Below are positions 2,757 to 32,000 of a DNA stretch of 32,000 nucleotides, one piece after another; position 1 is the stretch's first letter, and each line of letters begins with the position of its first letter. The notes under the pieces were generated by a model. The model saw nothing but the letters and a program-made list of their open reading frames with translations. It was not told the origin of the DNA and made no database searches. The translations under genes and the position numbers were made by a program. This DNA is from Delftia acidovorans NBRC 14950. Its GTDB lineage: Bacteria; Pseudomonadota; Gammaproteobacteria; Burkholderiales; Burkholderiaceae_C. The DNA is taken from positions 90,001 through 122,000 of the forward strand of contig NZ_BCZP01000008.1 in assembly GCF_001598795.1 (NCBI RefSeq), given 5' to 3'.

Positions 2757-4238
2757 TCAGCTGGCCTGCTTGACCACGCCGTAGCGGGCCAGCGTGCGCT
2801 CGCGCGCGGCTGCGTGGTCCACCACGGGATGGGGGTAGTCCGTGCCCAGCACCACGCCGGCCTCGGCCAGCTCCAGCGGCCGGGCCTGCCAGGGCGCGTG
2901 GCGCAGCGCGGCGGGCAGGCGGGCCAGTTCGGGCACGTAGCGCTCGATGAAGCGCGCATCGGCATCGAACTTCTGGCTTTGCGTGATGGGGTTGAAGATG
3001 CGGAACCAGGGCTGGGCATCGCAGCCCGTGGAGGCCGCCCACTGCCAGCCGCCGTTGTTGGCCGCCAGGTCGAAGTCGTTGAGCTGGCGCGCAAACCAGG
3101 CCTCGCCCCGGCGCCAGTCTATGCCCAGATCCTTGACCAGAAAGCTGGCCGCCACCATGCGCAGCCGGTTGTGCATATAGCCCGTGGTGTTGAGCTGGCG
3201 CATGGCGGCATCGACCAGCGGATAGCCGGTGCGGCCCTCGCACCAGGCGGCATACAGCGCATCGGCCTCGGGGCCGGTATCCCACACGATGGCGTCGTAG
3301 GCGGGCTTGAAGCTGGCGTGCACCACGTGCGGATGGTGGGCCAGGATCTGGAAATAGAAGTCGCGCCAGATCAGCTCGGACAGCCAGGTGGCGGCGCCCT
3401 CGGCATCATGGGGCTGGCTCTGCGTCTGCTCCCAGGCCAGCCTTGCCAGGCGGCGGATGGAGACCGTGCCGAAGCGCAGGTGCACGCTCAGGTAGCTGGG
3501 GCCCTTGACGGCGGGAAAGTCTCGCGCCTGCTTGTAGCGCGGCAGGCGCGGCAGAAAGTCGGCCAGCAGTTCCTCGGCGCCGGCGCAGCCCGTGGGCAGG
3601 CGCAGGCCGTCCAGCGTGCCGGCCTCAAAGCCCAGGTCGGCTGCGGTGGGCACGGGGCGGCGTTCGCCTTCGGGGCGCGGGGCCAGGCGCTCGGGCAGGT
3701 CGCGCTCGCTGGGATAGGCGGACAGGAAGAAGGGTGTGATCTGGCGCAGCCAGGCGTTCTTGTACGGGGTGAACACCGAGAACGGCGCGCCGGCCTGGGT
3801 CAGCACCTCGTCGCGCGCAAAGACCATGTGGTCCTTGAAACTGTGCAGGGCCACGCCCTCGGCGGCCAGGGCCTGGCGCACGCGGGCGTCGCGGGCCAGG
3901 GCGTCGGGCTCGTCGTCCCAGTTGCAGAACACGGCCTGGGCGCCGAGCTGCCGGGCCAGGTCCGGGATCTGCTCAGCGGGCCGGCCACGGCGCACGATGA
4001 GGCCGGTGTCGGCGCGGCCCGAGGCCTCGCGCAGCGCATCGTCCAGCCCGCTCAGGCTCTGGCAGATGAACTCCACGCGCCGGTCTGCACGGGGCAGGGG
4101 GGCGAGGATGTCGTCGTCGAAGATGAACACGCAATGCACCTGCCTGCACTGGCGCAGCGCGTGGTAGAGGGCGGCGTGGTCGGCCAGGCGCAGGTCGCGC
4201 CGCAGCCAGACCAAGCCCACAGGGTAAGAAGGTGGCAT
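2757..4238 (-). CDS. phrB: Deoxyribodipyrimidine photolyase (class I CPD photolyase)
   Basis: Internal Met of ORF 2757..4532, with CAT at 4236-4238. N-terminus MPPSYPVGLVWLRRDLRLADHAAL, plus TGYPLVDAAMRQL, WISELIWRDFY-like and NNGGWQW motifs typical of photolyases. The 98 codons upstream run through the neighbouring yqgE start and are rejected. Confidence 0.92.
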   Translation of the reverse strand: MPPSYPVGLVWLRRDLRLADHAALYHALRQCRQVHCVFIFDDDILAPLPRADRRVEFICQSLSGLDDALREASGRADTGLIVRRGRPAEQIPDLARQLGAQAVFCNWDDEPDALARDARVRQALAAEGVALHSFKDHMVFARDEVLTQAGAPFSVFTPYKNAWLRQITPFFLSAYPSERDLPERLAPRPEGERRPVPTAADLGFEAGTLDGLRLPTGCAGAEELLADFLPRLPRYKQARDFPAVKGPSYLSVHLRFGTVSIRRLARLAWEQTQSQPHDAEGAATWLSELIWRDFYFQILAHHPHVVHASFKPAYDAIVWDTGPEADALYAAWCEGRTGYPLVDAAMRQLNTTGYMHNRLRMVAASFLVKDLGIDWRRGEAWFARQLNDFDLAANNGGWQWAASTGCDAQPWFRIFNPITQSQKFDADARFIERYVPELARLPAALRHAPWQARPLELAEAGVVLGTDYPHPVVDHAAARERTLARYGVVKQAS

Positions 4239-4262
4239 GGATCGCCGGTAAAATCCGTGGTT

Positions 4263-4862
4263 ATGTCTGCTGAAACTGCGCCTATCAATCTGACGCACCA
4301 CTTCCTGATTGCCATGCCTGGCCTGGAAGACGAAGCGTTCTCGCGCAGTGTGATCTACCTGTGCGAACACAGCGAGCGCGGTGCGCTCGGTCTGATTATC
4401 AACAAGCCCTCGCAGCTTACGCTGGAAGGCTTGCTGGAAAAGGTGGATCTGGCCCTGGGCCGCGAGGACCTTCGCGGCAACCGTGTCTTCAACGGCGGAC
4501 CCGTGCAGACCGATCGCGGCTTTGTGCTGCACGACCCCATGGTCATCGAAGGCGCGCCCGACGACGAGTCCGCCTACGCCTCGACCATGACCATTCCCGG
4601 CGGCTTGGAGATGACCACCTCCAAGGACGTGCTCGAAGCCCTGTCCGACGGCGCAGGCCCCAAGCGCCTGCTGGTCACCCTGGGCTACGCGTCCTGGGGC
4701 GAGGGACAGCTGGAGTCGGAGCTGGCCGAAAACGCCTGGCTCACGGTGGGTGCCGACGCCAACGTCATCTTCGACACCCCGGTCGACGACCGCTATGACC
4801 GCGCCCTGGGCCTGCTGGGCCTGCAGCGCTGGATGATCTCGCCCGAAGCGGGGCGTGCATGA
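4263..4862 (+). CDS. yqgE: YqgE/AlgH family protein (UPF0301)
   Basis: ATG at 4263, in frame with the tail of ORF 2814..4862. N-terminus MSAETAPINLTHHFLIAMPGLEDEAFSRSVIYLCEHSERGALGLIINKP is the family hallmark. The upstream 483 codons are antisense to the photolyase gene. Confidence 0.9.
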   Translation: MSAETAPINLTHHFLIAMPGLEDEAFSRSVIYLCEHSERGALGLIINKPSQLTLEGLLEKVDLALGREDLRGNRVFNGGPVQTDRGFVLHDPMVIEGAPDDESAYASTMTIPGGLEMTTSKDVLEALSDGAGPKRLLVTLGYASWGEGQLESELAENAWLTVGADANVIFDTPVDDRYDRALGLLGLQRWMISPEAGRA

Positions 4863-5317
4863 GCCTGCCCGCTCCCGAGTCCCAGGCAGCAGCGGCAGCC
4901 GGCACGGCCGTGCCGCCCACCGTTCCCTCCCATTTCCAGAGTTTCGTGGCCTTCGATTTCGGGGCCAAGCGCACGGGCTGTGCCGTGGGCACGCGCATGC
5001 TGCGCTCGGCCAACCCGCTGCCCACCATCCGCGCCGAGGCTGGCGAGGCCCGCCTGGCCCAGGCCGGCGAGCGCATCAAGGAGTGGCAGCCCGATGCGCT
5101 GGTCATCGGCGTTCCCTACCACCCCGACGGCAATGCGCACGAGAACACGGCGCGGGCGAAGAAATTCGGCCGCCAGCTCAAGAGCCGCTTCGGCCTGCCT
5201 GTCTATGAGGTGGACGAGCGCTACAGCACCACCGAGGCCCTGGCCGGTGGCGCAAGGGATGCCGATGCGGCCTCGGCCTGCATCATTCTTGAACAGTTTT
5301 TGAGGAGTCTTCCATGA
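4859..5317 (+). CDS. ruvX: Holliday junction resolvase-like protein RuvX (YqgF)
   Basis: FDFGAKRTGCAVG RNase-H-like N-terminal motif and DERYSTTEA near the C-terminus. The start ATG overlaps the yqgE stop (ATGA at 4859-4862). An in-frame GTG at 4946 would give a more typical short N-terminus. Confidence 0.88.
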   Translation: MSLPAPESQAAAAAGTAVPPTVPSHFQSFVAFDFGAKRTGCAVGTRMLRSANPLPTIRAEAGEARLAQAGERIKEWQPDALVIGVPYHPDGNAHENTARAKKFGRQLKSRFGLPVYEVDERYSTTEALAGGARDADAASACIILEQFLRSLP

Positions 5318-5832
5318 GTGAATCCATTGCGGGAGCCGGCAGCCTGGTGCTGGACGCCGAGGCCCTGTACCGCGAACTGCTGCGCGGCGTGCGCAGCCTC
5401 ATGGGGCCTGAAACCCGCCTGGCCGGCATCACCTCGGGCGGCGCCTGGCTGGTGGAGCGGCTGCACAAGGACCTGAACCTGCCCGGCAACCCCAGCGTGC
5501 TGTCCTCGGCCCTGCACCGCGACGACTTCGCGCAGCGCGGCATGGCCACCAGCGCCCAGACGCAGATCGACTTTGACGTCAACGGCGCCGACATCCTGGT
5601 GCTGGACGACGTGCTCTACACCGGCCGCACCGTGCGCGCCGTGCTCAACGAACTCTATGACTACGGCCGCCCGGCCTGCGTGCGCCTGGCGGTGCTGGTG
5701 GACCGGGGCGGGCGCGAGTTGCCCTTCCAGGCCGACTTTGCCGCCGCGCGCATCGCGCTGCCGGCCGACCGCCTGCTGTCGCTGGCGCGCGATGACGCCG
5801 GCGTCTTCCAATTCCGCATCCAAGAGGCCTGA
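5314..5832 (+). CDS. pyrR: Pyrimidine operon regulator / uracil phosphoribosyltransferase PyrR
   Basis: PRPP-binding motif [20 protein letters not shown] overlap with the ruvX stop. Lies immediately upstream of pyrB. Confidence 0.9.
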
Positions 5833-5834
5833 CC

Positions 5835-6797
5835 GTGCTGTACAAGCGCAATCCCCAGCTCAACAAGAACGGCGAACTGATCCACCTGCTGTCCACCGAA
5901 GGACTGTCCAAGGACATCCTCACCCACATCCTGGACACGGCGGCCAACTTCGTCAGCGTCAATGACCGCGAGGTCAAGAAGGTGCCGCTGCTGCGCGGCA
6001 AGAGCGTGTTCAACCTGTTCTTCGAGAACAGCACGCGCACGCGCACCACGTTCGAGATCGCGGCCAAGCGCCTGTCGGCCGACGTGTTCAACCTGGACAT
6101 CGCGCGCAGCTCGGCCAGCAAGGGCGAATCGCTGCTGGACACCATCGCCAACCTCTCGGCCATGGCCGCCGACATCTTCGTCGTGCGCCACAGCGAGTCG
6201 GGTGCGCCCTACCTCATCGCCCAGCATGTGGCGCCCCATGTCCACGTGGTCAATGCCGGCGACGGCCGCCACGCCCACCCCACGCAGGGGCTGCTGGACA
6301 TGTACACCATCCGCCACTACAAGAAGGACTTCGCCAACCTGCGCGTGGCCATCGTGGGCGATGTGCTGCACTCGCGCGTGGCGCGCTCCGACATCCATGC
6401 GCTGACCACGCTGGGCGCGGCCGAAGTGCGCGTCGTCGGCCCGCGCACCTTGGTGCCGCCGGACCTGGCGCAGATGGGCGTGCGCGTCTTCCACACGCTG
6501 GAAGAGGGCATCCGGGACTGCGACGTGATCATCATGCTGCGCCTGCAGAACGAGCGCATGAGCGGCGCCCTGCTGCCGTCCAGCCAGGAATACTTCAAGA
6601 GCTTCGGCCTCACGGCCGAGAAGCTGCGCCTGGCCAAGCCGGACGCCATCGTCATGCACCCGGGCCCCATCAACCGCGGCGTGGAGATCGACTCCGAAGT
6701 GGTCGATGGCCCGCAGGCCGTGATCCTGTCGCAGGTCTCGTTCGGCATCGCCGTGCGCATGGCCGTCATGTCGATAGTGGCCGGCAACGAGGCTTGA
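5835..6797 (+). CDS. pyrB: Aspartate carbamoyltransferase catalytic chain
   Basis: GTG start 2 nt after the pyrR stop. [13 protein letters not shown] carbamoyl-phosphate motif and HPGPINRG motif. Confidence 0.95.
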
Positions 6798-21192: not shown

Positions 21193-21416
21193 GGGAAAAC
21201 CCAGAGAAAAATGCCAGCGGTCCAAGGATCGGTATGCCAATGTGATGGTTGTATCGTGTGAAATAACGCCCGTTTGCGTTAGTAATGTTTCTTTTTGTGA
21301 CGGATTGATGTAAGGGAAACCGCTTAGACTGCCGGCCCATCGAGGCGTGCGCTGACCGTCTTGATTCACGGAATACGGCCCCTGGGGGCGCAACGCATCA
21401 CAGGAAAGGCACGGCT

Positions 21417-22934
21417 TTGAATCAGGACTACAGCTTGCAGGTGGCGGGTTTGGGCGCATCGTTCGGTGCGCGCGTCATCCTGGCTGAGGTGGACTTCGCA
21501 CTGCCCGCCCGGGGCGTCACCGTTCTGCTGGGGCCTTCGGGATCGGGCAAATCCACCCTGCTGCGCACGCTGGCCGATCTCAATGCCGCCAATCCGCGTT
21601 TTCGCCGCTGGGGCAGCACGCGCTACGCGGGCCAGCCATGGAGCAGCGGCATGCAGGCGCCGCGCCTGGTGCAGCAGCAGGCCAGGCTGATGATGGCCAG
21701 CACCTTCGATGCCATCGTGGAGCTGGCGCGCCCCCGTCTCAAGCTGGTGCCGCATGAGCTGCGCGACTGGTGCCGCTCCCAGGTGCAGGCCTTTGGCTTC
21801 CCCGAGCTGGGATTGATGCTGGACCAGCCCGCGCTGGAGCTGTCTGCCGTGCAGCAGCGGGCCGTGGCCATCCTGCGCGAGGCGCTGGCCGAGCCGGCGC
21901 TGCTGATGGTGGACGAGCCCACGGCCGAGCTGGAGGGCTACGAGGCCTTCGTGCTGCTGGAACTGCTGCGCCAGGTGGGTCAGCGCACCGCCGTGCTGAT
22001 GAGCACGCACCACCAGCAGCACGCACAGGCCGTGGCGCAGGACATGCTGCTGCTGGCCGGCGGCCGCATCGCCGAGGCGCAATCCATGGAAGCCTTTCTG
22101 CGTGCACCGCTGTCGCTGGCGGGCCAGCAGTTCTTGCGCACCGGCAGCTGTGCCGTGGCCTCTCCCGATGCGCGGGCCGAAGACCTGGAGGAGGGCGTGC
22201 CCCTGCCTCCTCCGCTGCCTGCAGCGGCCGTGGCCGCGATCTCCGAGTTTCTGTCGGATGCAGTGGCCGCCGAGCCTGCGTCCGAGCCCATGCCTGCACC
22301 TGAGCCTGTGCCCGTGCCCGTGCCTGCATCCATGCCTGCGCCGGTACCCGCACCCGCACCGACACCCACTGCCGCTGCCGCTGCCCGGCCGCGCGCCGTC
22401 AATCCCGCCGTGCTGGTGGACTGGCAGCCGCTGGCCGCCGACCCGCAGGCCGTGCCCGCCAGCCGCGGCCCCAACGGTTTTGCCTGGCTGGTGCCGGGCC
22501 GGCTGGCCGGTGCGCCGCAGCCCGGCGTGGTGCAGTCCATGGACTTTGACCTGAAGGCCCTGCGCGGCTGCGGCGTCACCGTGCTGATCACGCTGACCGA
22601 AAACGACCTGCCACAAGAGCCGCTGCAGCAGCACGGCCTGCGCAACCTGCACCTGCCGGTGCGCGACCACGAATCACCCACGGTGGCCCAGATCCAGATG
22701 CTGCTGGCGCGCATGTCGGCCATGCTGCGCGCGGGCGAGGTGCTGGCCGTGCACTGCCTGGCCGGCCTGGGCCGCACGGGCACGGTGCTGGCCGCATGGC
22801 TGGTGCGCGAGGGCCTCACCGCCGACGAGGCGCTGCGCCGCGTGCGCCTCATCGACGCCCAGTACGTGCAGTCCCAGGCCCAGGAGGACCTGCTCTACGC
22901 GTACGAAGTGGCACTGCTGCTGAAGATGGGCTGA
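21417..22934 (+). CDS. Fusion protein: soluble ABC-type ATPase domain, Pro/Ala-rich linker, dual-specificity/PTP-type protein phosphatase domain
   Basis: TTG start with AGGAAAGG (21402-21409) 7 nt upstream. Walker A GPSGSGKST (21531-21557), degenerate signature LSAVQQRAV, Walker B LLMVDEPT, H-loop STHH. Linker PMPAPEPVPVPVPASMPAPVPAPAPTP. C-terminal C(X)5R P-loop VHCLAGLGRTG (HCLAGLGRT at 22752-22778). Confidence 0.8.
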   Translation: MNQDYSLQVAGLGASFGARVILAEVDFALPARGVTVLLGPSGSGKSTLLRTLADLNAANPRFRRWGSTRYAGQPWSSGMQAPRLVQQQARLMMASTFDAIVELARPRLKLVPHELRDWCRSQVQAFGFPELGLMLDQPALELSAVQQRAVAILREALAEPALLMVDEPTAELEGYEAFVLLELLRQVGQRTAVLMSTHHQQHAQAVAQDMLLLAGGRIAEAQSMEAFLRAPLSLAGQQFLRTGSCAVASPDARAEDLEEGVPLPPPLPAAAVAAISEFLSDAVAAEPASEPMPAPEPVPVPVPASMPAPVPAPAPTPTAAAAARPRAVNPAVLVDWQPLAADPQAVPASRGPNGFAWLVPGRLAGAPQPGVVQSMDFDLKALRGCGVTVLITLTENDLPQEPLQQHGLRNLHLPVRDHESPTVAQIQMLLARMSAMLRAGEVLAVHCLAGLGRTGTVLAAWLVREGLTADEALRRVRLIDAQYVQSQAQEDLLYAYEVALLLKMG

Positions 22935-22970
22935 CCGATCACATCCATTCACAAAAAAAGGAAAGCTGCA

Positions 22971-23375
22971 ATGAGCCTGGATAACGTTTTGAGCGAGGTG
23001 GCCGGGTCCGTGCCCGAGTGCCTGGCCATCGGCTACGTGGATGCCGCCTCCGGCATGCTGCTGGCCATCCGCACGGTGGACTCGCATCCGCGCGAAGTCA
23101 TCGACCTGGTGGCCGCCGCCACGGCCGACCTGTTCAACGGCCCCAATGTCTCGATGATCGAGAGCCTGTTCAAGAAGTCGCGCGGCCTCAAGGACGACGG
23201 CCACCACTACTTCCAGGAGCTCATCGTCAACAGCGACAACCTCATCCACGTCTTCCTGCGCGGCAAGCTCATGCCCGACTACGTGGCCGTCTTCGTTTGC
23301 CGGCGCACGGCCAACCTGGGCATGGCGCTGACCAAGGCCCGGATGGCCATGCCTAAGATTGAAGCGGCGGTGTAG
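22971..23375 (+). CDS. Roadblock/LC7 (MglB-like) domain protein
   Basis: 134 aa, 36 nt after the fusion gene, with AGGAAAG upstream. The pattern LSEVAGSVPECLAIGYVDAASGMLLA...VIDLVAAATADLF...QELIVNSDNLIHVFLR...YVAVFVCRRTANLGMA fits the alpha-beta-beta-alpha-beta layout of Roadblock/LC7. Assignment is by eye only. Confidence 0.6.
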   Translation: MSLDNVLSEVAGSVPECLAIGYVDAASGMLLAIRTVDSHPREVIDLVAAATADLFNGPNVSMIESLFKKSRGLKDDGHHYFQELIVNSDNLIHVFLRGKLMPDYVAVFVCRRTANLGMALTKARMAMPKIEAAV

Positions 23376-23435: not shown

Positions 23436-24110
23436 ATGCGCTTACTGCTTGTTGAAGATGACGCCATGATCGGCGAGGCCGTGCAGACCCTGCTGCGCGG
23501 CGAGGGCCATGCGGTGGACTGGGTCCGTGACGGCCTGCAGGCCGATGCGGCCCTGTGCCCCGGCCCGGGTGGCGGCCATGGCTATGACATGGTGCTGCTG
23601 GACCTGGGCCTGCCGGGGCAGGATGGCCTGCAGGTGCTGCGCCGCCTGCGCGGGCGCCGCGACCGCACGCCGGTGCTGGTGGCCACGGCGCGCGATGCCG
23701 TGCGCGACCGCATTGCCGGGCTGGATGCGGGGGCCGATGACTACGTGGTCAAACCCTATGACCTGGACGAGCTGCTCGCGCGCCTGCGCGCGTTGGCGCG
23801 GCGTGCCTCTGGCGGGTCCGACCCGCTGTACGAGCGCGAGGGCGTGCGGCTCAATCCCGCCACGCGCGAGGCCAGCGTCGATGGGCGCGACGTGGTGCTC
23901 TCGGGCCGCGAATGGGCGGTGCTGGAGACGCTGCTGGCACGCCCGGGCAGCACGCTGTCGCGCCAGCAGATCGAGGACAAGCTCTACGGCTGGGGCGACG
24001 AGGTCAGCAGCAATGCCATCGAGGTCTACATCCACGGCCTGCGCAAGAAGCTGGGCGCGGGGCTGATCCTCAATGTGCGCGGTGTGGGCTACATGGTGCC
24101 CAAGCCATGA
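23436..24110 (+). CDS. OmpR/PhoB-family response regulator (QseB/TctD-like)
   Basis: REC motifs LLLVEDD, VLLDLGLPGQDG and VVKPYD. C-terminal winged-helix region AIEVYIHGLRKKLG...RGVGYMV. Confidence 0.92.
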   Translation: MRLLLVEDDAMIGEAVQTLLRGEGHAVDWVRDGLQADAALCPGPGGGHGYDMVLLDLGLPGQDGLQVLRRLRGRRDRTPVLVATARDAVRDRIAGLDAGADDYVVKPYDLDELLARLRALARRASGGSDPLYEREGVRLNPATREASVDGRDVVLSGREWAVLETLLARPGSTLSRQQIEDKLYGWGDEVSSNAIEVYIHGLRKKLGAGLILNVRGVGYMVPKP

Positions 24111-25570
24111 AGGCGCCGGCTTCCTCCCTTGTTTCCTCCCTTATCGCCCGGGCGCGCAGCCGCCTGCCCGGTGCACTGGGCACGCGGCTGCTCCTGTTCC
24201 TGGGCGCGGCCATCGTGCTCACGGCGCTGCTGCAGGGCCTGCTGGCCTACCGCAATGCGCTGCTGCAGACCGACACCCTGTTCGACTACCAGATGCAGCA
24301 GACCGCCTTTGCGCTGCGCGCCGGCCTGCCGGTGGATGCGCGCGGCAGGCCCCAGGGCACGCCGCCGGAGGACGAGAACCACGAATTCATCGTCCAGGTC
24401 TGGACCAACGAAGGCCTGCGCATTTTTGAATCCGCCCTGGGCGCCGCGCTGCCGCAGATGGCCGTGCTGGGCTTTGCCGATGTGCCCGCGCGCGGCACCG
24501 TATACCGCGTGTTCTCGCTGCAGACGCGCTCGCAGGTGATCCAGGTGGCGCAGGACATGCGCGTGCGCCGCACCCTGGCGCGCGATGCCGCCTGGCAAAG
24601 CCTGCTGCCCATCGCCTTGCTGGCGCCCGTGCTGGCGCTGGCCGTGTGGTGGGTGGTGCGCAGTTCGCTGGCGCCCGTGCAGCGCGTGCGCCGCGAGCTG
24701 GCCACGCGCCGCCCGCAGGACCTGGCCCCCGTGCCTGCCGAGGGCCTGCCCGACGAGGTGCGGCCCCTGGTGGCCGAGCTCAACGCGCTGCTGCAGCGCG
24801 TGGGCCAGGCCTTCGAGGCGCAGCAGCACTTCGTGGCCGACGCCGCGCACGAGCTGCGCTCTCCGCTGGCCGCGCTCAAGCTGCAACTGGTGGCCTTGCA
24901 GCGCGCGCCCGATGCGGCCGCGCATGACGAGGCCGTGCAGCGTCTTTCGGCCGGCATAGACCGGGCCACACGGCTCGTCGAACAATTGTTGACATTGGCG
25001 CGGCAGGAAGCCCAAGGCACGGTACAAGGCACGGCACAAGGCGTGCAAGGCATGCAGGGGCAGCACGACGCTGCCGCGGCCGCACCTGCCGACGTGGACC
25101 TGCGCGAAGTGGTGGAGCAGGCCCTGGCAGACCAGGCCGTGGCCGCCCAGCAGCACGGCCTGGACATGGGCCTGAGCGAGTCCCCGCAACTGCGGCAGTC
25201 CTTTGCCGTGGCGGGCGACGCACAGTCCTTGCAGATGCTGGTGCGCAACCTGCTGGACAACGCCGTCAAGTACGTTCCGCAAGGCGGCCGCGTCGATGTC
25301 GGCTGGCGCAGCGATGCCCAGGGCCGCGCGCTGGTGGTCGAGGACTCGGGCCCCGGCATTGCCGAAAGCGAGCGCGAACTGGTGCTGCGGCGCTTTGTGC
25401 GTGGACCTTCAGCGGCTTCTGCGGGCCAGCAGGCGCAGGGCAGCGGCCTGGGCCTGGCCATTGTGCAGACCATTGCCGAGCGCCACGGTGCTCGCCTGCT
25501 GCTGGACCGCTCGCCCACGCTGGGCGGCCTGCGCGTGCAGGTGATGTGGCCGCCCGTGTCGGGCCGCTGA
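24107..25570 (+). CDS. Sensor histidine kinase (QseC-type, two TM segments)
   Basis: The start ATG overlaps the regulator's stop (ATGA at 24107-24110). H-box FVADAAHELRSPLAAL, N-box LLDNAVKY, G-boxes VEDSGPGI and GSGLGLAIV. Confidence 0.9.
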   Translation: MKAPASSLVSSLIARARSRLPGALGTRLLLFLGAAIVLTALLQGLLAYRNALLQTDTLFDYQMQQTAFALRAGLPVDARGRPQGTPPEDENHEFIVQVWTNEGLRIFESALGAALPQMAVLGFADVPARGTVYRVFSLQTRSQVIQVAQDMRVRRTLARDAAWQSLLPIALLAPVLALAVWWVVRSSLAPVQRVRRELATRRPQDLAPVPAEGLPDEVRPLVAELNALLQRVGQAFEAQQHFVADAAHELRSPLAALKLQLVALQRAPDAAAHDEAVQRLSAGIDRATRLVEQLLTLARQEAQGTVQGTAQGVQGMQGQHDAAAAAPADVDLREVVEQALADQAVAAQQHGLDMGLSESPQLRQSFAVAGDAQSLQMLVRNLLDNAVKYVPQGGRVDVGWRSDAQGRALVVEDSGPGIAESERELVLRRFVRGPSAASAGQQAQGSGLGLAIVQTIAERHGARLLLDRSPTLGGLRVQVMWPPVSGR

Positions 25571-26866: not shown

Positions 26867-28474
26867 TCAACCTGCTGCCAGCATGGGCTGCCTGCGCTGC
26901 AGCTCCACGGCGGCATGCTGATGGCCGCTTGCCGCCTCCAGCTTGAAGGCGCCCACCGTGCGCACCAGGTCGCCGGCCTGGCCGCGCAGGCTGGAGGCGG
27001 CGGCGGCCATCTCCTCCACCAGTGCCGAGTTCTGCTGGGTGGCCTGGTCCATCTGCGTGACCGCCTGGCCGATCTGCGCCACGCCCGAGCTTTGCTCGGA
27101 ACTGGCGGCGCTGATCTCGCCCATCAGATCCGTTACGCGGCGTATGGCGTCCACCACCTCGGCCATGGTCGTGCCGGCCTGGTCGGCCAGCGCGCTGCCG
27201 TTGTGCACGCGGCTGGCGCTGTCGGTGATCAGTTGCTTGATCTGCTTGGCGGCCTCGGCACTGCGGCTGGCCAGGCCGCGCACCTCGGTGGCCACCACCG
27301 CAAAGCCCCGGCCCTGTTCGCCCGCACGCGCGGCTTCCACGGCCGCGTTCAGCGCGAGGATATTGGTCTGGAAGGCAATGCCGTCGATCACATTGATGAT
27401 GTCGGCGATCTGCCGGCTGGAATCACTGATGCCGCGCATGGTGTCCACCACCTGCCGAACGACCTCGCCGCCCTGCTCGGCCACGGTGGAGGCACCCAGC
27501 GCCAGCTGGTTGGCCATCTGCGCGTTGTCGGCGTTCTGGCGCACGGTGGAGCTGAGCTGCTCCATGGAGGCGGCCGTCTGCTGCAGGGCGCTGGCCTGGC
27601 TTTCGGTGCGCGAGGACAGGTCCTGGTTGGCCTGCGCGATCTGCCCGCTGGCCGCTGCCACGCTGACCGATCCCTGGTGCACCTGGCGTACCACGCCGCG
27701 CAGCCCCTCCTGCATGGTCTGCAGCGCGCGCAGCAGCATGGACACCTCGTCCTTGCCGCGCACATCGATGTGCCGTGTCAGGTCGCCCGCCGCCACGGCA
27801 TCGGCCGTATGGATGGCCAGGCGCAGCGACCGCGCCATGTTGCGGATGATGGACCAGCCCAGCAGCACCCCGAGCAGCACGCCCGCGATGATGGAGCCCA
27901 CGGCCACGGCAAAGATCATCTGGTACAGCGACTGCGCGGCCTCGTACTCCTCCTTGGCGATGCGGGTCTGCAGGGCGGTCAGCTGCACGATCACATCACG
28001 CAGCGGCGCGTACAGCGCCTCGTCCTTGTCGATCAGCAGTTGCCGGGCCAGCGCCAGGTCCCCGGACTGCAGCGCCTGCTGGGCCGGCTTCAGAAAGCCC
28101 TGCAGGAACAGCGCGCGCACGGCCTCGAAGCGGTCGGCCAGCTGCGCCTCTTGCTCCGTCATCCGGGTCTGGCGGAACGAGGTCCAGAACTTGTTCACGT
28201 CGTTGATGTTGGTCTGTATCTCCTGCTGCTTTTGCTGCGTGTACTCGGGCAGGTGCACGGCAATGGCGCCCGAGACCGCATTGCGGTTGCGCAGTAGCAG
28301 GCGCTGCACTTCCAGCAGATCGCCCAGTGCGACCAGGCGCTCTTCATAGACCACCTTGAATCGGCGGTTGGACTCGCTGATTCCATATAGCCCAAAAGCG
28401 CCGATCACGATCATGAGCAGTGAGAGAAAACCAATCAAGGCGGTTAGGCGAGTCGATAACTTGAAATTATTCAT
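26867..28474 (-). CDS. Methyl-accepting chemotaxis protein (4HB-type sensor, HAMP, MA domain)
   Basis: N-terminal TM and four-helix-bundle-like region, HAMP, and the conserved hairpin [31 protein letters not shown]. Confidence 0.93.
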
Positions 28475-28567
28475 ACTGCGTCCTTTGCATGCATTGCGGA
28501 TGGTTGGTGGGTACTTGCGTTGTCAGGCCGCCCCGTGATGACTCGCATCTCTCACAACGGAATCGGT

Positions 28568-28587
28568 AATGAAAATGAGATTTCATT
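28568..28587. promoter_or_regulatory. Inverted repeat AATGAAA-n6-TTTCATT upstream of the MCP gene
   Basis: Arms at 28568-28574 and 28581-28587, about 95-115 nt upstream of the MCP start codon. Confidence 0.3.
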
Positions 28588-28690
28588 AACGGGAAATGCC
28601 CGGTCTGCACAAATGCTCACAGGCATCCGGAAACGGCGATGCTGGCTTGCTGATGGCCAGCGTGGCCAATGGCGATCCATGTTGTATTGG

Positions 28691-28712
28691 TTTGTAAACT
28701 ATTTGTTACAAA
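28691..28712. promoter_or_regulatory. Inverted repeat TTTGTAA-n8-TTACAAA in the MCP/DUF2939 divergent region
   Basis: Arms at 28691-28697 and 28706-28712, with AAACTAT occurring twice inside and beside it. Sits in an AT-rich patch within GC-rich DNA. Confidence 0.3.
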
Positions 28713-28794
28713 CTATAGTATGAATCGAATGGGCCAGGCAATACCAGTTTTTCAGGCATTGGCCTTGGCCTGATAGGGGTTCTCTGCGCATTGC

Positions 28795-28813
28795 TTCGCT
28801 ATTGTTTCGCTAT
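28795..28813. promoter_or_regulatory. Direct repeat TTCGCTAT x2 with 11-nt periodicity
   Basis: Copies at 28795-28802 and 28806-28813, about 140 nt upstream of the DUF2939 gene. One-helical-turn spacing is typical of winged-helix regulator sites. Confidence 0.25.
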
Positions 28814-28950
28814 GAAAAATACAGGCGGCAACGGCCCTGGCAGTGGCTGCGGCGCCGAACGGCCCGCCTAGAATCCGCCTTTATGCGCTGTGCATGCGCG
28901 TTCATCCGCGCTTGCGCGAGGCCCCTGGCCTGCCTTCACGAAAGAGATCC

Positions 28951-29484
28951 ATGAAACCCAAAACCCTTGCCCGCGCGCTGGCCGCCCTCTGCGTGGCTGC
29001 GGCCGGACTGCTCTACGCATCGCCCTACATCGCCCTGCACCAGATCGGCAAGGCCGTGGAGCGCCGCGATGCCCAGGCCCTGTCCGGCTACGTGGACTTT
29101 CCCGCGCTGCGCGAAAGCATCAAGGGCCAGATGATGGCCAGGCTGCAATCCCAGATGGGCGGCTCGGGCGACAGCGCCTCCAACCCCCTGGCCGGCTTTG
29201 GCCAGCAACTGGCCCAGGGCCTGGTCAGCCAGTTCACCGAGGCGCTGGTCTCGCCCGACGGCGTCATGCTCATGCTGGAAAAAGGCAAGCCCGGCAAACC
29301 CACGGACGTGGCCGCCGCAGGCGTGGGCGTGGACACCCAGGGCGGGCCGCCGCGCAAGGACTACTCAGTGGAGTACCAGGGTTGGTCCAAGGTCTTCGTG
29401 CACCCGCGCGGCGAGCCGGGCGGCTTCATCTTCCGGCGAGAAGGCCTGATGGGATGGCGGCTGGTGGCCGTGAAGATGGATTGA
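28951..29484 (+). CDS. DUF2939 family protein (signal/anchor N-terminus)
   Basis: Internal ATG at 28951 of ORF 28843..29484. MKPKTLARALAALCVAAAGLLYASPYIALHQIGKAVERRDAQALSGYVDFPALRESIKGQ matches my recollection of DUF2939. Confidence 0.7.
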   Translation: MKPKTLARALAALCVAAAGLLYASPYIALHQIGKAVERRDAQALSGYVDFPALRESIKGQMMARLQSQMGGSGDSASNPLAGFGQQLAQGLVSQFTEALVSPDGVMLMLEKGKPGKPTDVAAAGVGVDTQGGPPRKDYSVEYQGWSKVFVHPRGEPGGFIFRREGLMGWRLVAVKMD

Positions 29485-29517
29485 GGGGCGCGGGCAGGCC
29501 GCCTGCACCCCGGTCCC

Positions 29518-29742
29518 TCAGCCTTGATGCAGCACCTTCATCACATGGCGCTTGCCCAGCCGCAGCGCGCGGGCATCGGCCTCTGGCTGCGTATCGCAGG
29601 GCTGGTCATCGGTGATGGCCTCCAGGGCCTTGCCGCTGGCCACCTCCAGCAAGGTGGCGCGCGGCAGCCAGGCGCCTGGCGAGGCATCGCTGGGAAGTGA
29701 TGCGGGCGTGATCCGCACGCCCATGTAGAAAAGGCTGTCCAT
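29518..29742 (-). CDS. Hypothetical small protein (74 aa)
   Basis: Starts 21 nt downstream of the GST stop on the same strand. Roughly 80 percent G/C at third codon positions by my count, consistent with real coding in this genome. No family recognised. Confidence 0.4.
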   Translation of the reverse strand: MDSLFYMGVRITPASLPSDASPGAWLPRATLLEVASGKALEAITDDQPCDTQPEADARALRLGKRHVMKVLHQG

Positions 29743-29763
29743 GGCCTGGCGTATCCGTTCGGA

Positions 29764-30387
29764 TCAGCCTGCCAGGGGCGGGCGGGGCAGGGCCAGCCAC
29801 TGCTGGACGGCGGGGTGCTGCCACTGCCGGCGCGCATAGGCGGCCAGCGGCGCGGGCACGGCATCGCCGTTGAGCACCAGGCGGTTGAGCATCAGCGCCA
29901 GGTCCACATCGGCAATCGACCATGGGCCGGCAATGTGGTCATCTTCCGCGCGGATGAAGGCACCGGCCACCGAGAACAGCTTGCGCGCCGCGGCCTGGCC
30001 CGCATCCGACAGCGGCGTGGGCGTGGGGCGGTAGAACACCACTTCGGTGCTGCGCTCCGAGCGCAGTGCCATCAGATCGCTGCGCAGCCAGGCCTGGACC
30101 TGGCGCACACGGGCGCGCGCCTGCGCATCCTGGGGGTAGAGCGGGGCGCCGCCAAAGCGCTCTTGCAGATACTCGGAAATCGCCGACGACTCCGACAGGC
30201 TGAAGTCGCCATCCACCAGCGTGGGAACGCGCGCAGTGAGCGATGCAGCCACATAGTCCGCCCCGATGTTCTGTCCCGCCGAAAGGTCCAGCGTGCGCAG
30301 CTCGAAGTCAATCCCCTTGACCTTCAGCGCAACGAACACGGACATGGCATAGGGAGAGGCGAATTGCGAATCGGCGTAAAGCAGCAT
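29764..30387 (-). CDS. Glutathione S-transferase family protein (YfcF-like)
   Basis: Internal ATG at 30387 of ORF 29764..30558. MLLYADSQFASPYAMSVFVALKVKGIDFELRTLDL...RVPTLVDGDFSLSESSAISEYL is a thioredoxin-like GST N-domain. Confidence 0.88.
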   Translation of the reverse strand: MLLYADSQFASPYAMSVFVALKVKGIDFELRTLDLSAGQNIGADYVAASLTARVPTLVDGDFSLSESSAISEYLQERFGGAPLYPQDAQARARVRQVQAWLRSDLMALRSERSTEVVFYRPTPTPLSDAGQAAARKLFSVAGAFIRAEDDHIAGPWSIADVDLALMLNRLVLNGDAVPAPLAAYARRQWQHPAVQQWLALPRPPLAG

Positions 30388-30569
30388 GAGGGCCTTTCGG
30401 GAGACTGCATCAGTGATTGGGGCACTGATGGTAGCCGAGTGCCCGGGTCTATGGCTCAGTAGGCAGTCTGTCCCCTTGTGACTCCGGTTGTCCAAGCCAG
30501 CTTCGCCGACTGTCCCACGCCATGAGCTTTGACAGTTGACGTGTACTGCACATGGCAAGGCAGCATCGG

Positions 30570-31623
30570 TCGGAAGGCTAGGAAAACTCTTAAACTTACG
30601 ATAGCTTATTTACATGGATTTAATTGATCTATAGAATTTGCGCATAACACATTGGGGTTCGCCCCTCAAAACCATCAGTAGCCATGCGCTGACTCCAGCT
30701 GCGCCGTTCCGCTCTCTGCGGATAGTCATGCCAGAAAAAAGCCGCCTATCCTGGGATTTGGATTTTGGTGAATTTGATTCTCTGGCTCTCAACTTTTTTA
30801 ATCCGGATTTTCAGGGTCAGATTGCTTGGCCCATTTTCCCTCTTGAAGGCTGATGGGCTCATGCTTGCAGTTCATTTAAATAAGAATTTTCTTTTATTTC
30901 TGTGGGCTGATAGGCAATATTTCCGTGATTGTTAATATTTCTTGGAGGATATTATGAAAGGTTTGCTTGCTTTTTTCTTTACATTATTGATTGCGATTTT
31001 TCCCGGTGCCGTCCTTGCAAATGAAGAGGTCGTGCAGGTGAAAATATCCACCAATTTCAAAGGTGAGGTGGTGAAAAGAAGTGCCGTCGTAGGTTTGGGA
31101 GAATCGATAAAGCTCACATCCAGTCAAGGAGGAATGATTGTCGCCATAGAATATGTAATAAGAACTATTCAAGTGAATGGTCTTAAAAATTACAGCATAT
31201 CTGCGACTTTATATTCGGGTGTGGAGAGCGCTGAAGCCTGGTTGTCCAGGCGTGATGTTTTTGCGGTTGTTGAAAAATCAGTTCCTGCCTTTTTCAAATT
31301 GGATGATTCATCTGACGAGATGCAGGTCGAGGTGACCATCGCCGATATCCGTGAAGAAGAGGAATATTTGAAAAATATGCCTAGAAAAATTTGCGATTTG
31401 AGCTTGGAAAGTCCTAAGCTCCTGAAGTCTCAGACTGCATCAGGAACTTATGGCTGTTGTGATATCCGCTGCCAATCAGTTAATGGAACTTGTTGTGGCG
31501 CAATTATGTGCTGTCTCAGGGATCCAGATAGCTATCCTGCGTGGCAGCATGATATTGCTAATGATTGCTGCTGTTATCCACCTCAGTATTAAGCAAAGAT
31601 AGTTTGAAAAAATCATCCACTAT
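30570..31623. other. AT-rich compositional island (probable horizontally acquired DNA)
   Basis: Hand counts of single 60-nt lines: 19/60 G+C at 30601-30660 and 24/60 at 30961-31020, against 47/60 at 29761-29820 in the adjacent GST gene. Bounded on the right by an IS481-type transposase remnant. Confidence 0.7.
30954..31592 (+). CDS. Secreted protein of unknown family with a very Cys-rich C-terminal tail
   Basis: ATG at 30954 with GGAGGA (30944-30949) upstream. Signal peptide MKGLLAFFFTLLIAIFPGAVLA/NEE. A 640-nt open frame in AT-rich DNA is unlikely by chance. The last 47 residues hold 10 Cys: CC-x3-C-x6-CC-x4-CC-x17-CCC. Confidence 0.7.
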   Translation: MKGLLAFFFTLLIAIFPGAVLANEEVVQVKISTNFKGEVVKRSAVVGLGESIKLTSSQGGMIVAIEYVIRTIQVNGLKNYSISATLYSGVESAEAWLSRRDVFAVVEKSVPAFFKLDDSSDEMQVEVTIADIREEEEYLKNMPRKICDLSLESPKLLKSQTASGTYGCCDIRCQSVNGTCCGAIMCCLRDPDSYPAWQHDIANDCCCYPPQY

Positions 31624-32000
31624 CTAGTTGCAAACCGTCAAGAGGTTATTTGCAAATTTGAACCTGGACATCGAAGCGATGTGAACGATACCGCTGTGCG
31701 ACCTGTGCCTGTGGTAGTAGTGCTGACAGCTCGCCAGGGCATTGGCTCGCTCGGCTGAGTTCTGATACGTCCACCCATAGGCCCACTCGCGCAGCGCCGA
31801 TTGGATGAACCGCTCGGCCTTGCCATTGGTTACGGCCGATACGGCTTGGTGAACTTGTGCGGCGCACCCAAGGCTATACAGGCCGCAGGAAAATCCTTGG
31901 ACCAGAAAGCTGCGCCGTTGTCAATTAGCAATCGTTTGAGGAGCACTCCCAGTTGCGCCTAGTGCGCCACCGTGCTGTGCAGGAACGCGATGGTTTCGTG
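31624..32000 (-). pseudogene. IS481-family transposase gene remnant (3' part; continues beyond the window)
   Basis: My minus-strand translation gives ...LLIDNGAAFWSKDFPAACIALGAPHKFTKPYRP then, one frame over, TNGKAERFIQSALREWAYGWTYQNSAERANAL...HYYHRHRSHSG...NNLLTVCN*. This is the DDE C-terminal signature of IS481-type integrases. It is broken by an in-frame TAG (31959-31961) and a frameshift near 31830-31832. Confidence 0.75.

Follow-up and report, generated by a model that had tools for sequence, protein, structure and literature searches.

What would a bacterial cell do with an ABC-type ATPase that carries its own cysteine-dependent phosphatase and is encoded directly next to a small protein of an unnamed family? 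The question is raised by a locus in a 32,000-nucleotide (nt) stretch of DNA from Delftia acidovorans NBRC 14950 (contig NZ_BCZP01000008.1, positions 90,001 to 122,000; this whole stretch is termed the window here, and its first letter is position 1), in which a gene for a 505-residue fusion protein is followed on the same strand by a gene for a protein of 134 residues. A preliminary description of this locus, made from the sequence letters, had recognized the fusion, had noted a Roadblock/LC7-like pattern in the small protein, and had proposed an ATP-gated phosphatase switch that is controlled by the small protein and possibly wired to an adjacent two-component system. Comparative analysis of both proteins and of their gene neighborhoods leads us to favor, with a probability of roughly 0.45, the view that the two genes encode a self-contained ATPase-phosphatase switch with a Roadblock-fold partner, which together form a vertically conserved cytoplasmic signalling pair. 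The two genes and their putative start signals are the following:

21402..21409, + strand: Shine-Dalgarno-like AGGAAAGG, read from the sequence, ending 7 nt 5' of the TTG of the fusion gene
21417..22934, + strand: fusion gene, 505 residues, TTG start; ABC nucleotide-binding domain, Pro/Ala linker and Cys-based dual-specificity/protein tyrosine phosphatase (PTP) domain, by Pfam
22959..22965, + strand: Shine-Dalgarno-like AGGAAAG, inside the 36-nt spacer, ending 5 nt 5' of the ATG of the small gene
22971..23375, + strand: small gene, 134 residues, ATG start; Roadblock/LC7-fold protein (predicted) of an unnamed, extremely conserved family

The sequence confirms both open reading frames (ORFs), the 36-nt gap between them and the ribosome-binding site of the small gene, all as first described, and the 36-nt spacer holds no terminator-like site. 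The 300-nt leader has neither an Rfam match nor a sigma-70 consensus.

A frameshift or assembly artefact is ruled out as the source of the fusion. The joined architecture proves genuine: it occurs in 428 clusters at 50% identity (E<=1e-30), the best 150 of those listed match over both domains, and a protein identical (100%) to the 505-residue product is annotated in complete Delftia genomes and in D. acidovorans.

Conservation of the gene pair

We scanned genomes, one per species, for the small gene and recovered 80 loci. In 71 of these the small gene is adjoined, on its own strand, by a complete fusion gene, which precedes it in 56 loci and follows it in 15; most of the loci outside this set are truncated by the end of a contig. 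Measured between their aligned ends, the two genes are a median of about 45-78 nt apart. The loci are distributed over the Proteobacteria, including Comamonadaceae, Gallionellaceae, Nitrosomonadales, Methylobacillus, Derxia, Stenotrophomonas, other Xanthomonadales and Alcanivorax, and the Myxococcota are also represented. Hence the two genes are conserved neighbors in other genomes, which is what the co-occurrence search suggested in the preliminary description was meant to establish. The same association is recovered from the opposite direction: in a metagenome scan seeded with a 10-sequence alignment of the fusion, essentially every metagenomic fusion with enough flanking sequence has an adjoining small gene, whereas unrelated stand-alone PTPs and ABC domains in that scan have none. 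As the pair is kept in both gene orders and is found from either gene, it is strongly supported as a functional unit. No natural fusion of the small protein to the ABC-phosphatase was found among the 150 representatives.

The pair also appears to be complete in itself. Clustering of all ORFs in the 80 loci yielded no third gene that is conserved across lineages, and no cluster of GTPase genes was found beside the small gene in these loci.

Predicted fold and conservation of the small protein

The identity of this constant partner is not apparent from sequence comparison. Although 3440 homologues of the small protein were recovered, it has no match in Pfam or NCBIfam (at E<=0.1), profile searches against the PDB returned chance-level matches only, and an hhalign comparison with a genuine Robl_LC7 (PF03259) protein of Ralstonia gave a probability of 0.2%. 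Structure prediction was more informative. An AlphaFold (AF2) model built from a 30-sequence alignment, with a mean predicted local distance difference test score (pLDDT) of 79 and a predicted template-modelling (TM) score, pTM, of 0.74, displays the topology a-b-b-a-b-b-b-a, in which the helices (H) and strands (E) are H3-13, E17-24, E29-35, H40-70, E83-87, E91-97, E104-111 and H116-133. When this model was compared to the PDB using Foldseek, all 50 of the 50 matches listed belonged to the Roadblock/LC7 superfamily (E about 2e-6, probability 1.00, TM 0.6-0.7); they include the Streptomyces Roadblock protein 3kye, which is the best single match, MglC, MglB, LAMTOR2 and Roadblock proteins of Asgard archaea. 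Going by this model, which is of moderate confidence, the small protein is an alpha-beta(2)-alpha-beta(3) sandwich with the Roadblock/LC7 fold. The likeness to Roadblock/LC7 proteins that had been proposed from the sequence therefore stands at the level of fold, by the AF2 model and Foldseek, but not at the level of sequence profiles, by Pfam, the PDB searches or hhalign. One UniRef entry for the small protein already bears the name 'Roadblock/LC7 domain-containing protein'. Elsewhere, this fold provides dimeric platforms for P-loop NTPases, as in MglB-MglA, CvnB-CvnD and Ragulator-Rag, and Roadblock/LC7 proteins are partners of small GTPases in processes as different as bacterial polarity (MglB) and mTOR signalling (Ragulator).

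Over the Beta- and Gammaproteobacteria and the Myxococcota, identity of the small protein amounts to 67-100%. The identity of about 70% between classes indicates that it is under unusually tight constraint. In an alignment of 30 sequences from several genera, 57 of the 134 positions are invariant, among them C17, H39, H79, Y80, H93, Y104 and C110. From the predicted order of the strands, C17 at the start of strand 1 and C110 at the end of strand 5 would lie side by side, and these cysteines could form a metal or redox site. Over 68 diverged loci the small protein reaches a median identity of 74%, the phosphatase domain 61% and the ABC domain 42%.

The ABC-type domain and its lost signature

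We located the nucleotide-binding motifs of the fusion protein and counted their residues in an alignment of 112 sequences, comprising the query and 111 diverse representatives of 400-600 residues:

21417..22151, + strand: ABC-type nucleotide-binding domain (NBD), residues 1-245; nearest to PstB and the NBDs of amino-acid importers; ends in a conserved F-x-R-T-G-S-C motif
21531..21557, + strand: Walker A GPSGSGKST, residues 39-47; G39, G44 and K45 each in 111/112, S46 in 109/112
21675..21677, + strand: Q-loop glutamine Q87; Gln in 108/112
21840..21854, + strand: degenerate signature LSAVQ, residues 142-146, in place of LSGGQ
21900..21923, + strand: Walker B LLMVDEPT with the catalytic Glu, residues 162-169; D166 and E167 in 112/112
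22002..22013, + strand: H-loop STHH, residues 196-199; H198 in 106/112

The Pfam model ABC_tran (PF00005) spans residues 23-170 and positions 2-137 of the 137 in its profile (E 4e-14; 53.8 bits, cut-off 25), and the NCBIfam model PstB (TIGR00972) matches residues 8-240 over model positions 3-243 of 248 (E 5.9e-27). At 94.6 bits against a cut-off of 343.2, the protein does not reach PstB equivalog status under TIGR00972. Sequence matches in the PDB are to importer-type NBDs and comprise 4u00, 9k3x and LolD. Toward the end of the domain G243 hardly varies, and C245 occurs in 89 of the 112 sequences. All motifs quoted in the preliminary description, namely Walker A, Q87, LSAVQ, Walker B, STHH and the phosphatase motif VHCLAGLGRTG considered below, are present. 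The LSGGQ signature, which completes the ATP sandwich in a dimer, is lost in all 112 family members: L142, Q/R147 and R148 alone are conserved in this region, and the positions of Ser-Gly-Gly are occupied by P/S, L/P/R and G/A/V, respectively. Thus, LSAVQ is a trait of the family rather than a local mutation. Judging from these motifs, the ABC domain binds ATP and probably hydrolyses it as well. Further, the loss of LSGGQ with retention of Walker A, Walker B and the H-loop suggests that nucleotide turnover proceeds without the usual head-to-tail sandwich.

These features bear directly on whether the protein could be an orphan ABC-transporter ATPase, for instance a PstB paralogue, whose phosphatase regulates transport or phosphate signalling. 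PstB is its top NCBIfam model, the ABC domain is of the importer NBD type, and one Delftia protein is annotated as 'Phosphate import ATP-binding protein PstB 2'. PstB signals to PhoR via PhoU, and the likeness to the PstB-PhoU-PhoR system would extend to a PstB-type NBD that passes a signal, with a kinase and a regulator next door in Delftia. However, the PstB score (94.6 bits) stays below the cut-off of 343, and the signature that a transporter needs for its ATP sandwich is missing throughout the family. As had been remarked from the first inspection of the locus, no cognate permease or binding-protein gene lies beside the fusion: there is none in the window, and none is conserved in the 80 loci. 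The pair lacks pstSCA and phoU, and its two-component neighbors are not conserved. Its sole constant partner is a soluble Roadblock-fold protein, and some homologues carry a single transmembrane anchor of their own. We accordingly regard a role in transport as improbable.

ABC-type ATPases are also found in anti-phage defence, and the pair might belong to a system built on such an enzyme, like those of AriA, GajA and PtuA. PADLOC ATPase models do give weak matches, to mad3 (2.6e-15), mad8 and AriA (P-loop only), but these reflect generic ABC/P-loop similarity, and the small protein has no PADLOC match. Moreover, there is no nuclease or other typical defence effector, the chromosomal context is stable within lineages and lacks defence-island neighbors, and the sequences are very highly conserved. 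Of the explanations considered here, defence has the lowest probability.

The linker and the phosphatase domain

The ABC domain is joined to a second enzymatic domain through a low-complexity segment:

22155..22466, + strand: Pro/Ala-rich low-complexity linker, residues about 247-350 (Ala 27%, Pro 24%), encoded in part by short DNA repeats
22470..22907, + strand: DUSP23/VHZ-like Cys phosphatase domain, residues 352-497, by Pfam and PDB matches
22665..22667, + strand: putative general-acid Asp D417; Asp in 110/112, within a P-[IV]-x-D-x-x-x-P motif
22749..22781, + strand: P-loop VHCLAGLGRTG, residues 445-455, with Cys447 (112/112) and Arg453 (109/112)

The linker had been described as Pro/Ala-rich and about 60 residues long; the composition holds, but the length is nearer 100 residues. 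Over the family the linker ranges from 13 to 180 residues, with a median of 45. The DNA that encodes it contains tandem repeats with periods of 6 and 30 (22272-22385), and the alleles of the fusion in Delftia strains are 495, 497, 499, 501, 503, 505 and 507 residues long. Given these two-residue steps, the length of the linker appears to vary between strains by multiples of 6 bp.

The phosphatase domain is recognized by three Pfam models, PF22785 (1.2e-21, 77.6 bits against a cut-off of 27), PF22784 (8.6e-21, 75.0 bits against 27) and DSPc, PF00782 (3.4e-11, 43.5 bits against 33.5). Its sequence matches in the PDB are 25xa_A (7e-24), DUSP23 (2img, 1e-16) and SsoPTP (2i6i). With the DUSP23/VHZ and SsoPTP enzymes it shares the HCxxGxxR(T) P-loop, the general-acid Asp and the domain size; they differ in that those enzymes are stand-alone, whereas the phosphatase of the fusion is tethered to an ABC ATPase. 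D417 lines up with the Asp of the 'lplpD' motif in 25xa and DUSP23-type PTPs. G450, T454 and G455 of the P-loop are invariant across the 112 family members, and the set formed by H446-C447-x5-R453-T454 and D417 is kept in 97-100% of the family. As the catalytic residues are retained across the family, both enzymatic halves look functional. The initial assignment of a soluble ABC domain joined to an intact Cys phosphatase is hence upheld by the Pfam, NCBIfam and PDB matches and by the retention of residues expected to be catalytic.

The same Pfam matches raise the possibility of a toxin-immunity or toxin-antitoxin pair, in which the C-terminal dual-specificity phosphatase (DSP)-PTPase would be the toxin and the small protein the immunity factor. 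The top match of the domain, PF22785 (Tc-R-P), is named 'Polymorphic toxin system, DSP-PTPase phosphatase', NCBI applies the name 'phosphatase domain-containing putative toxin', and the placing of an enzymatic domain at the C-terminus, with a small gene behind it, recalls the layout of toxin-immunity cassettes. Against this, 1) Pfam detects no secretion or trafficking domain in the fusion, the N-terminus of which is the ABC domain; 2) immunity proteins evolve fast, whereas the putative one here shows 67-100% identity between classes, so that the neighbor is conserved rather than variable; 3) in 15 loci the small gene comes first; 4) there are no phage matches, the plasmid matches are to megaplasmids or chromids only, and the pair is chromosomal and vertically inherited; 5) the modelled fold of the small protein is that of an NTPase partner. 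A toxin is thus very improbable.

Variant loci and longer family members

Six loci contain two copies of the small gene beside one fusion, mostly in tandem. In Delftia sp. PS-11 (L004) the copies, at 3648-4229 and 6001-6405 of the locus, lie one on each side of the fusion; in the other five they are placed as follows:

L063: small-gene copies at 5490-5894 and 5995-6399
L068: small-gene copies at 5496-5906 and 5992-6396
L078: small-gene copies at 5427-5834 and 5959-6396
L089: small-gene copies at 5400-5795 and 5927-6319
L099: small-gene copies at 613-1014 and 1066-1434

These double genes hint that the small protein acts as a dimer, either a homodimer or a heterodimer. In Comamonas suwonensis EJ-4 it is the pair as a whole that is present in two diverged copies (L012 and L024), one with a two-component system beside it and the other without.

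Long members of the fusion family (P0247, P0248, P0251 and P0269; P0298, P0300, P0309 and P0322) show two kinds of addition. The first consists of an N-terminal transmembrane helix followed by a long Pro/Ala/Glu-rich spacer, a sequence feature which suggests that the anchored members act at the inner face of the membrane and hints that the site of action is controlled. The second comprises a conserved N-terminal domain of about 300 residues, with a weak match to DUF4388 (PATAN-like; E 0.0096, below the cut-off), and an additional, degenerate ABC-like domain that lies between the active ABC domain and the phosphatase.

In two loci the phosphatase and the small protein are found together in the absence of an intact ATPase. 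In a Myxococcales metagenome-assembled genome (MAG; L069) a 578-residue protein encoded at 3906-5642 on the - strand is divergent from the small gene at 5950-6405 on the + strand; its degenerate ABC-like domain has no Walker A (CDERYCRR in place of GPxGxGKST) and its Walker B has DD for DE, but its phosphatase is intact. On the megaplasmid CP011998 of Ralstonia solanacearum YC45 (L081, 5345-7769) a DSP phosphatase that stands alone, lacking an ABC domain, precedes a homologue with 63% identity to the small protein, after which come genes for a canonical Robl_LC7 protein (1.2e-17), a 188-residue protein with a weak helix-turn-helix match and a 126-residue protein with a weak Robl_LC7 match. These variants indicate that the link between phosphatase and small protein can outlast a working ATPase.

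A more distant homologue of the small protein, 36% identical, is encoded on plasmid NZ_CP065362 of Ruegeria sp. SCSIO 43209 (L082, 1901-12399) among four dynamin-family GTPase genes, together with two hypothetical genes (137 and 287 residues) and a protein kinase gene downstream. This is a different Roadblock-like/dynamin cluster, apparently an undescribed one. The association of distant relatives of the small protein with GTPases, like the canonical Robl_LC7 neighbor in Ralstonia, hints at a broader role as a partner of NTPases.

Two-component neighbors and genomic surroundings

In the window the small gene is followed by genes for a two-component system:

23436..24110, + strand: OmpR-type response regulator (Pfam Response_reg and Trans_reg_C); a neighbor in some lineages only
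24107..25570, + strand: QseC/PmrB-like sensor histidine kinase; a neighbor in some lineages only

The kinase has HATPase_c and HisKA domains above the Pfam cut-offs, with HAMP and 2CSK_N below them. The suggestion that the pair is wired to this system is not borne out by the comparative data: a regulator is next to the pair in 19 of the 80 loci and a kinase in 18, all confined to Delftia, Comamonas and close Comamonadaceae. In two of the loci (L003 and L038) about 1.7 kb separate the pair from the regulator. Being restricted to the relatives of Delftia and Comamonas, the adjacency represents local synteny and not a conserved feature.

Farther downstream of the small gene and the two-component genes are genes for a GAF-GGDEF protein and an MCP, and upstream of the fusion gene there are those for an amidohydrolase, a xanthine/uracil permease, an ArsC-family protein and a DegP-like protease. 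The window contains no tRNA genes. In its last part, 28001-32000, the G+C content falls from about 0.70 to 0.48-0.58; this region includes genes for a DUF2939 protein (28843-29484) and, on the - strand, a GST (29764-30558), along with ORFs that lack a Pfam match, and may be foreign or intergenic-rich DNA.

Locus L002 comes from a contig labelled as part of a MAG of Sphingopyxis sp. (NZ_DATMST010000172.1). Its small gene and the matched parts of its fusion and regulator are 100% identical to the proteins of the window, and a binning error has probably placed Delftia DNA in the Sphingopyxis MAG.

Comparison with known systems

The pair resembles the MglA-MglB polarity switch of Myxococcus xanthus and Thermus thermophilus, in which a small Roadblock/LC7-fold protein is likewise encoded beside a P-loop NTPase. 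The modelled small protein has a long C-terminal helix like that of MglB, and MglB and MglC are among its best Foldseek matches. In contrast to MglA, which is a Ras-like GTPase, the NTPase here is an ABC-type ATPase with its own phosphatase. Additionally, the small protein has no detectable sequence similarity to Robl_LC7, and conservation is distributed differently, the Roadblock partner being the less conserved component there and the more conserved one here.

The conservons (CvnA kinase-like, CvnB Roadblock, CvnC DUF742, CvnD GTPase) also combine a Roadblock protein with an NTPase, a kinase lies nearby in Delftia, and 3kye, the best structural match of the small protein, is a Streptomyces Roadblock/LC7 protein. 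Yet the pair includes neither a GTPase nor a DUF742 protein, the Delftia kinase is of the ordinary HisKA kind, has a regulator of its own and is not conserved with the pair, and the pair is found in Proteobacteria and Myxococcota whereas conservons are found in Actinomycetota.

With the eukaryotic Ragulator (LAMTOR2/3)-Rag system the pair would share a platform of Roadblock-fold dimers that serves NTPases. Foldseek ranks LAMTOR2 among the top matches, and the loci with two paralogous small genes hint at heterodimers. The difference is that the GTPases of the eukaryotic system carry Roadblock domains of their own, and the NTPase parts are not homologous.

We found no published description of this architecture in the full-text literature, in which subscription journals are partly covered, so that this is not proof of its absence. 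The view that no characterised module combines an ABC-phosphatase with a Roadblock protein hence agrees with the literature, within this incomplete journal coverage.

Proposed mechanism and direction of control

A flexible Pro/Ala tether joins the ABC-type domain to the DUSP23-like phosphatase, and we propose that the Roadblock protein would bind the ABC domain, either as a homodimer or, in genomes with two paralogues, as a heterodimer. The ATP- or ADP-bound state of this complex would then determine whether the tethered phosphatase reaches its substrate, or where it does so. The nucleotide cycle of the ABC domain would depend on a partner, most obviously the Roadblock protein; the two-component system would be a local neighbor outside the switch. 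The more specific proposition, that a Roadblock dimer serves as the nucleotide-cycle partner of the signature-less ABC ATPase, in a manner like that of a GTPase-activating protein, a guanine nucleotide exchange factor or a platform, and thereby gates the tethered phosphatase, is tentative and less likely than not.

Several observations weigh against the switch as proposed. The Roadblock assignment comes from one model, with a pLDDT of 79 that drops below 60 over residues 41-60, and it has no match at the sequence level. In all 68 of the 68 diverged loci the small protein surpasses both domains of the fusion in conservation; a conservation that exceeds that of the ATPase cuts against a simple MglB-like accessory role, and the small protein may be a central player or a client instead of an accessory regulator. 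Finally, the Myxococcales and Ralstonia variants lack a working ABC domain, and control by ATP may be dispensable for the core function.

In the main alternative, control runs the other way: the Roadblock-fold protein would be the effector, binding some universal target in the cell or a ligand via its invariant Cys and His residues, and the ABC-phosphatase its dedicated modifier, which acts by ATP-dependent dephosphorylation, or by loading and unloading, of the small protein. Such an arrangement would be in keeping with the top rank of the small protein in conservation in 68/68 loci and with its 57/134 invariant positions (C17, H39, H79, Y80, H93, Y104 and C110 included). It would likewise accommodate the retention of a PTP neighbor where the ABC domain is missing (Ralstonia, L081) or degenerate (L069), as well as the company that distant homologues keep with other NTPases (Ruegeria). 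Dephosphorylation of the small protein, however, finds no counterpart in a kinase gene conserved near the pair in the 80 loci, and known Roadblock proteins such as MglB and LAMTOR are platforms or regulators and not substrates. We therefore view reversed control as unlikely, but as an account to be taken seriously.

Implications

If the ATPase-phosphatase switch with a Roadblock-fold partner is real, it would represent a widespread and hitherto unrecognized switch of Beta- and Gammaproteobacteria and Myxococcota that is independent of two-component systems. It would extend the regulation of P-loop NTPases by Roadblock proteins beyond the GTPase class, and a Cys phosphatase tethered to an ATPase would constitute a new output of bacterial signalling. 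Database entries currently carry the labels 'ABC transporter', 'putative toxin', 'atypical dual specificity phosphatase' and 'hypothetical protein', of which the first, second and last are misleading. The carriers include many environmental and opportunistic bacteria, such as Delftia, Comamonas, Acidovorax, Stenotrophomonas and Xanthomonadales, with the variant form in Ralstonia, and the conservation of the 134-residue protein alone makes it worth characterizing.

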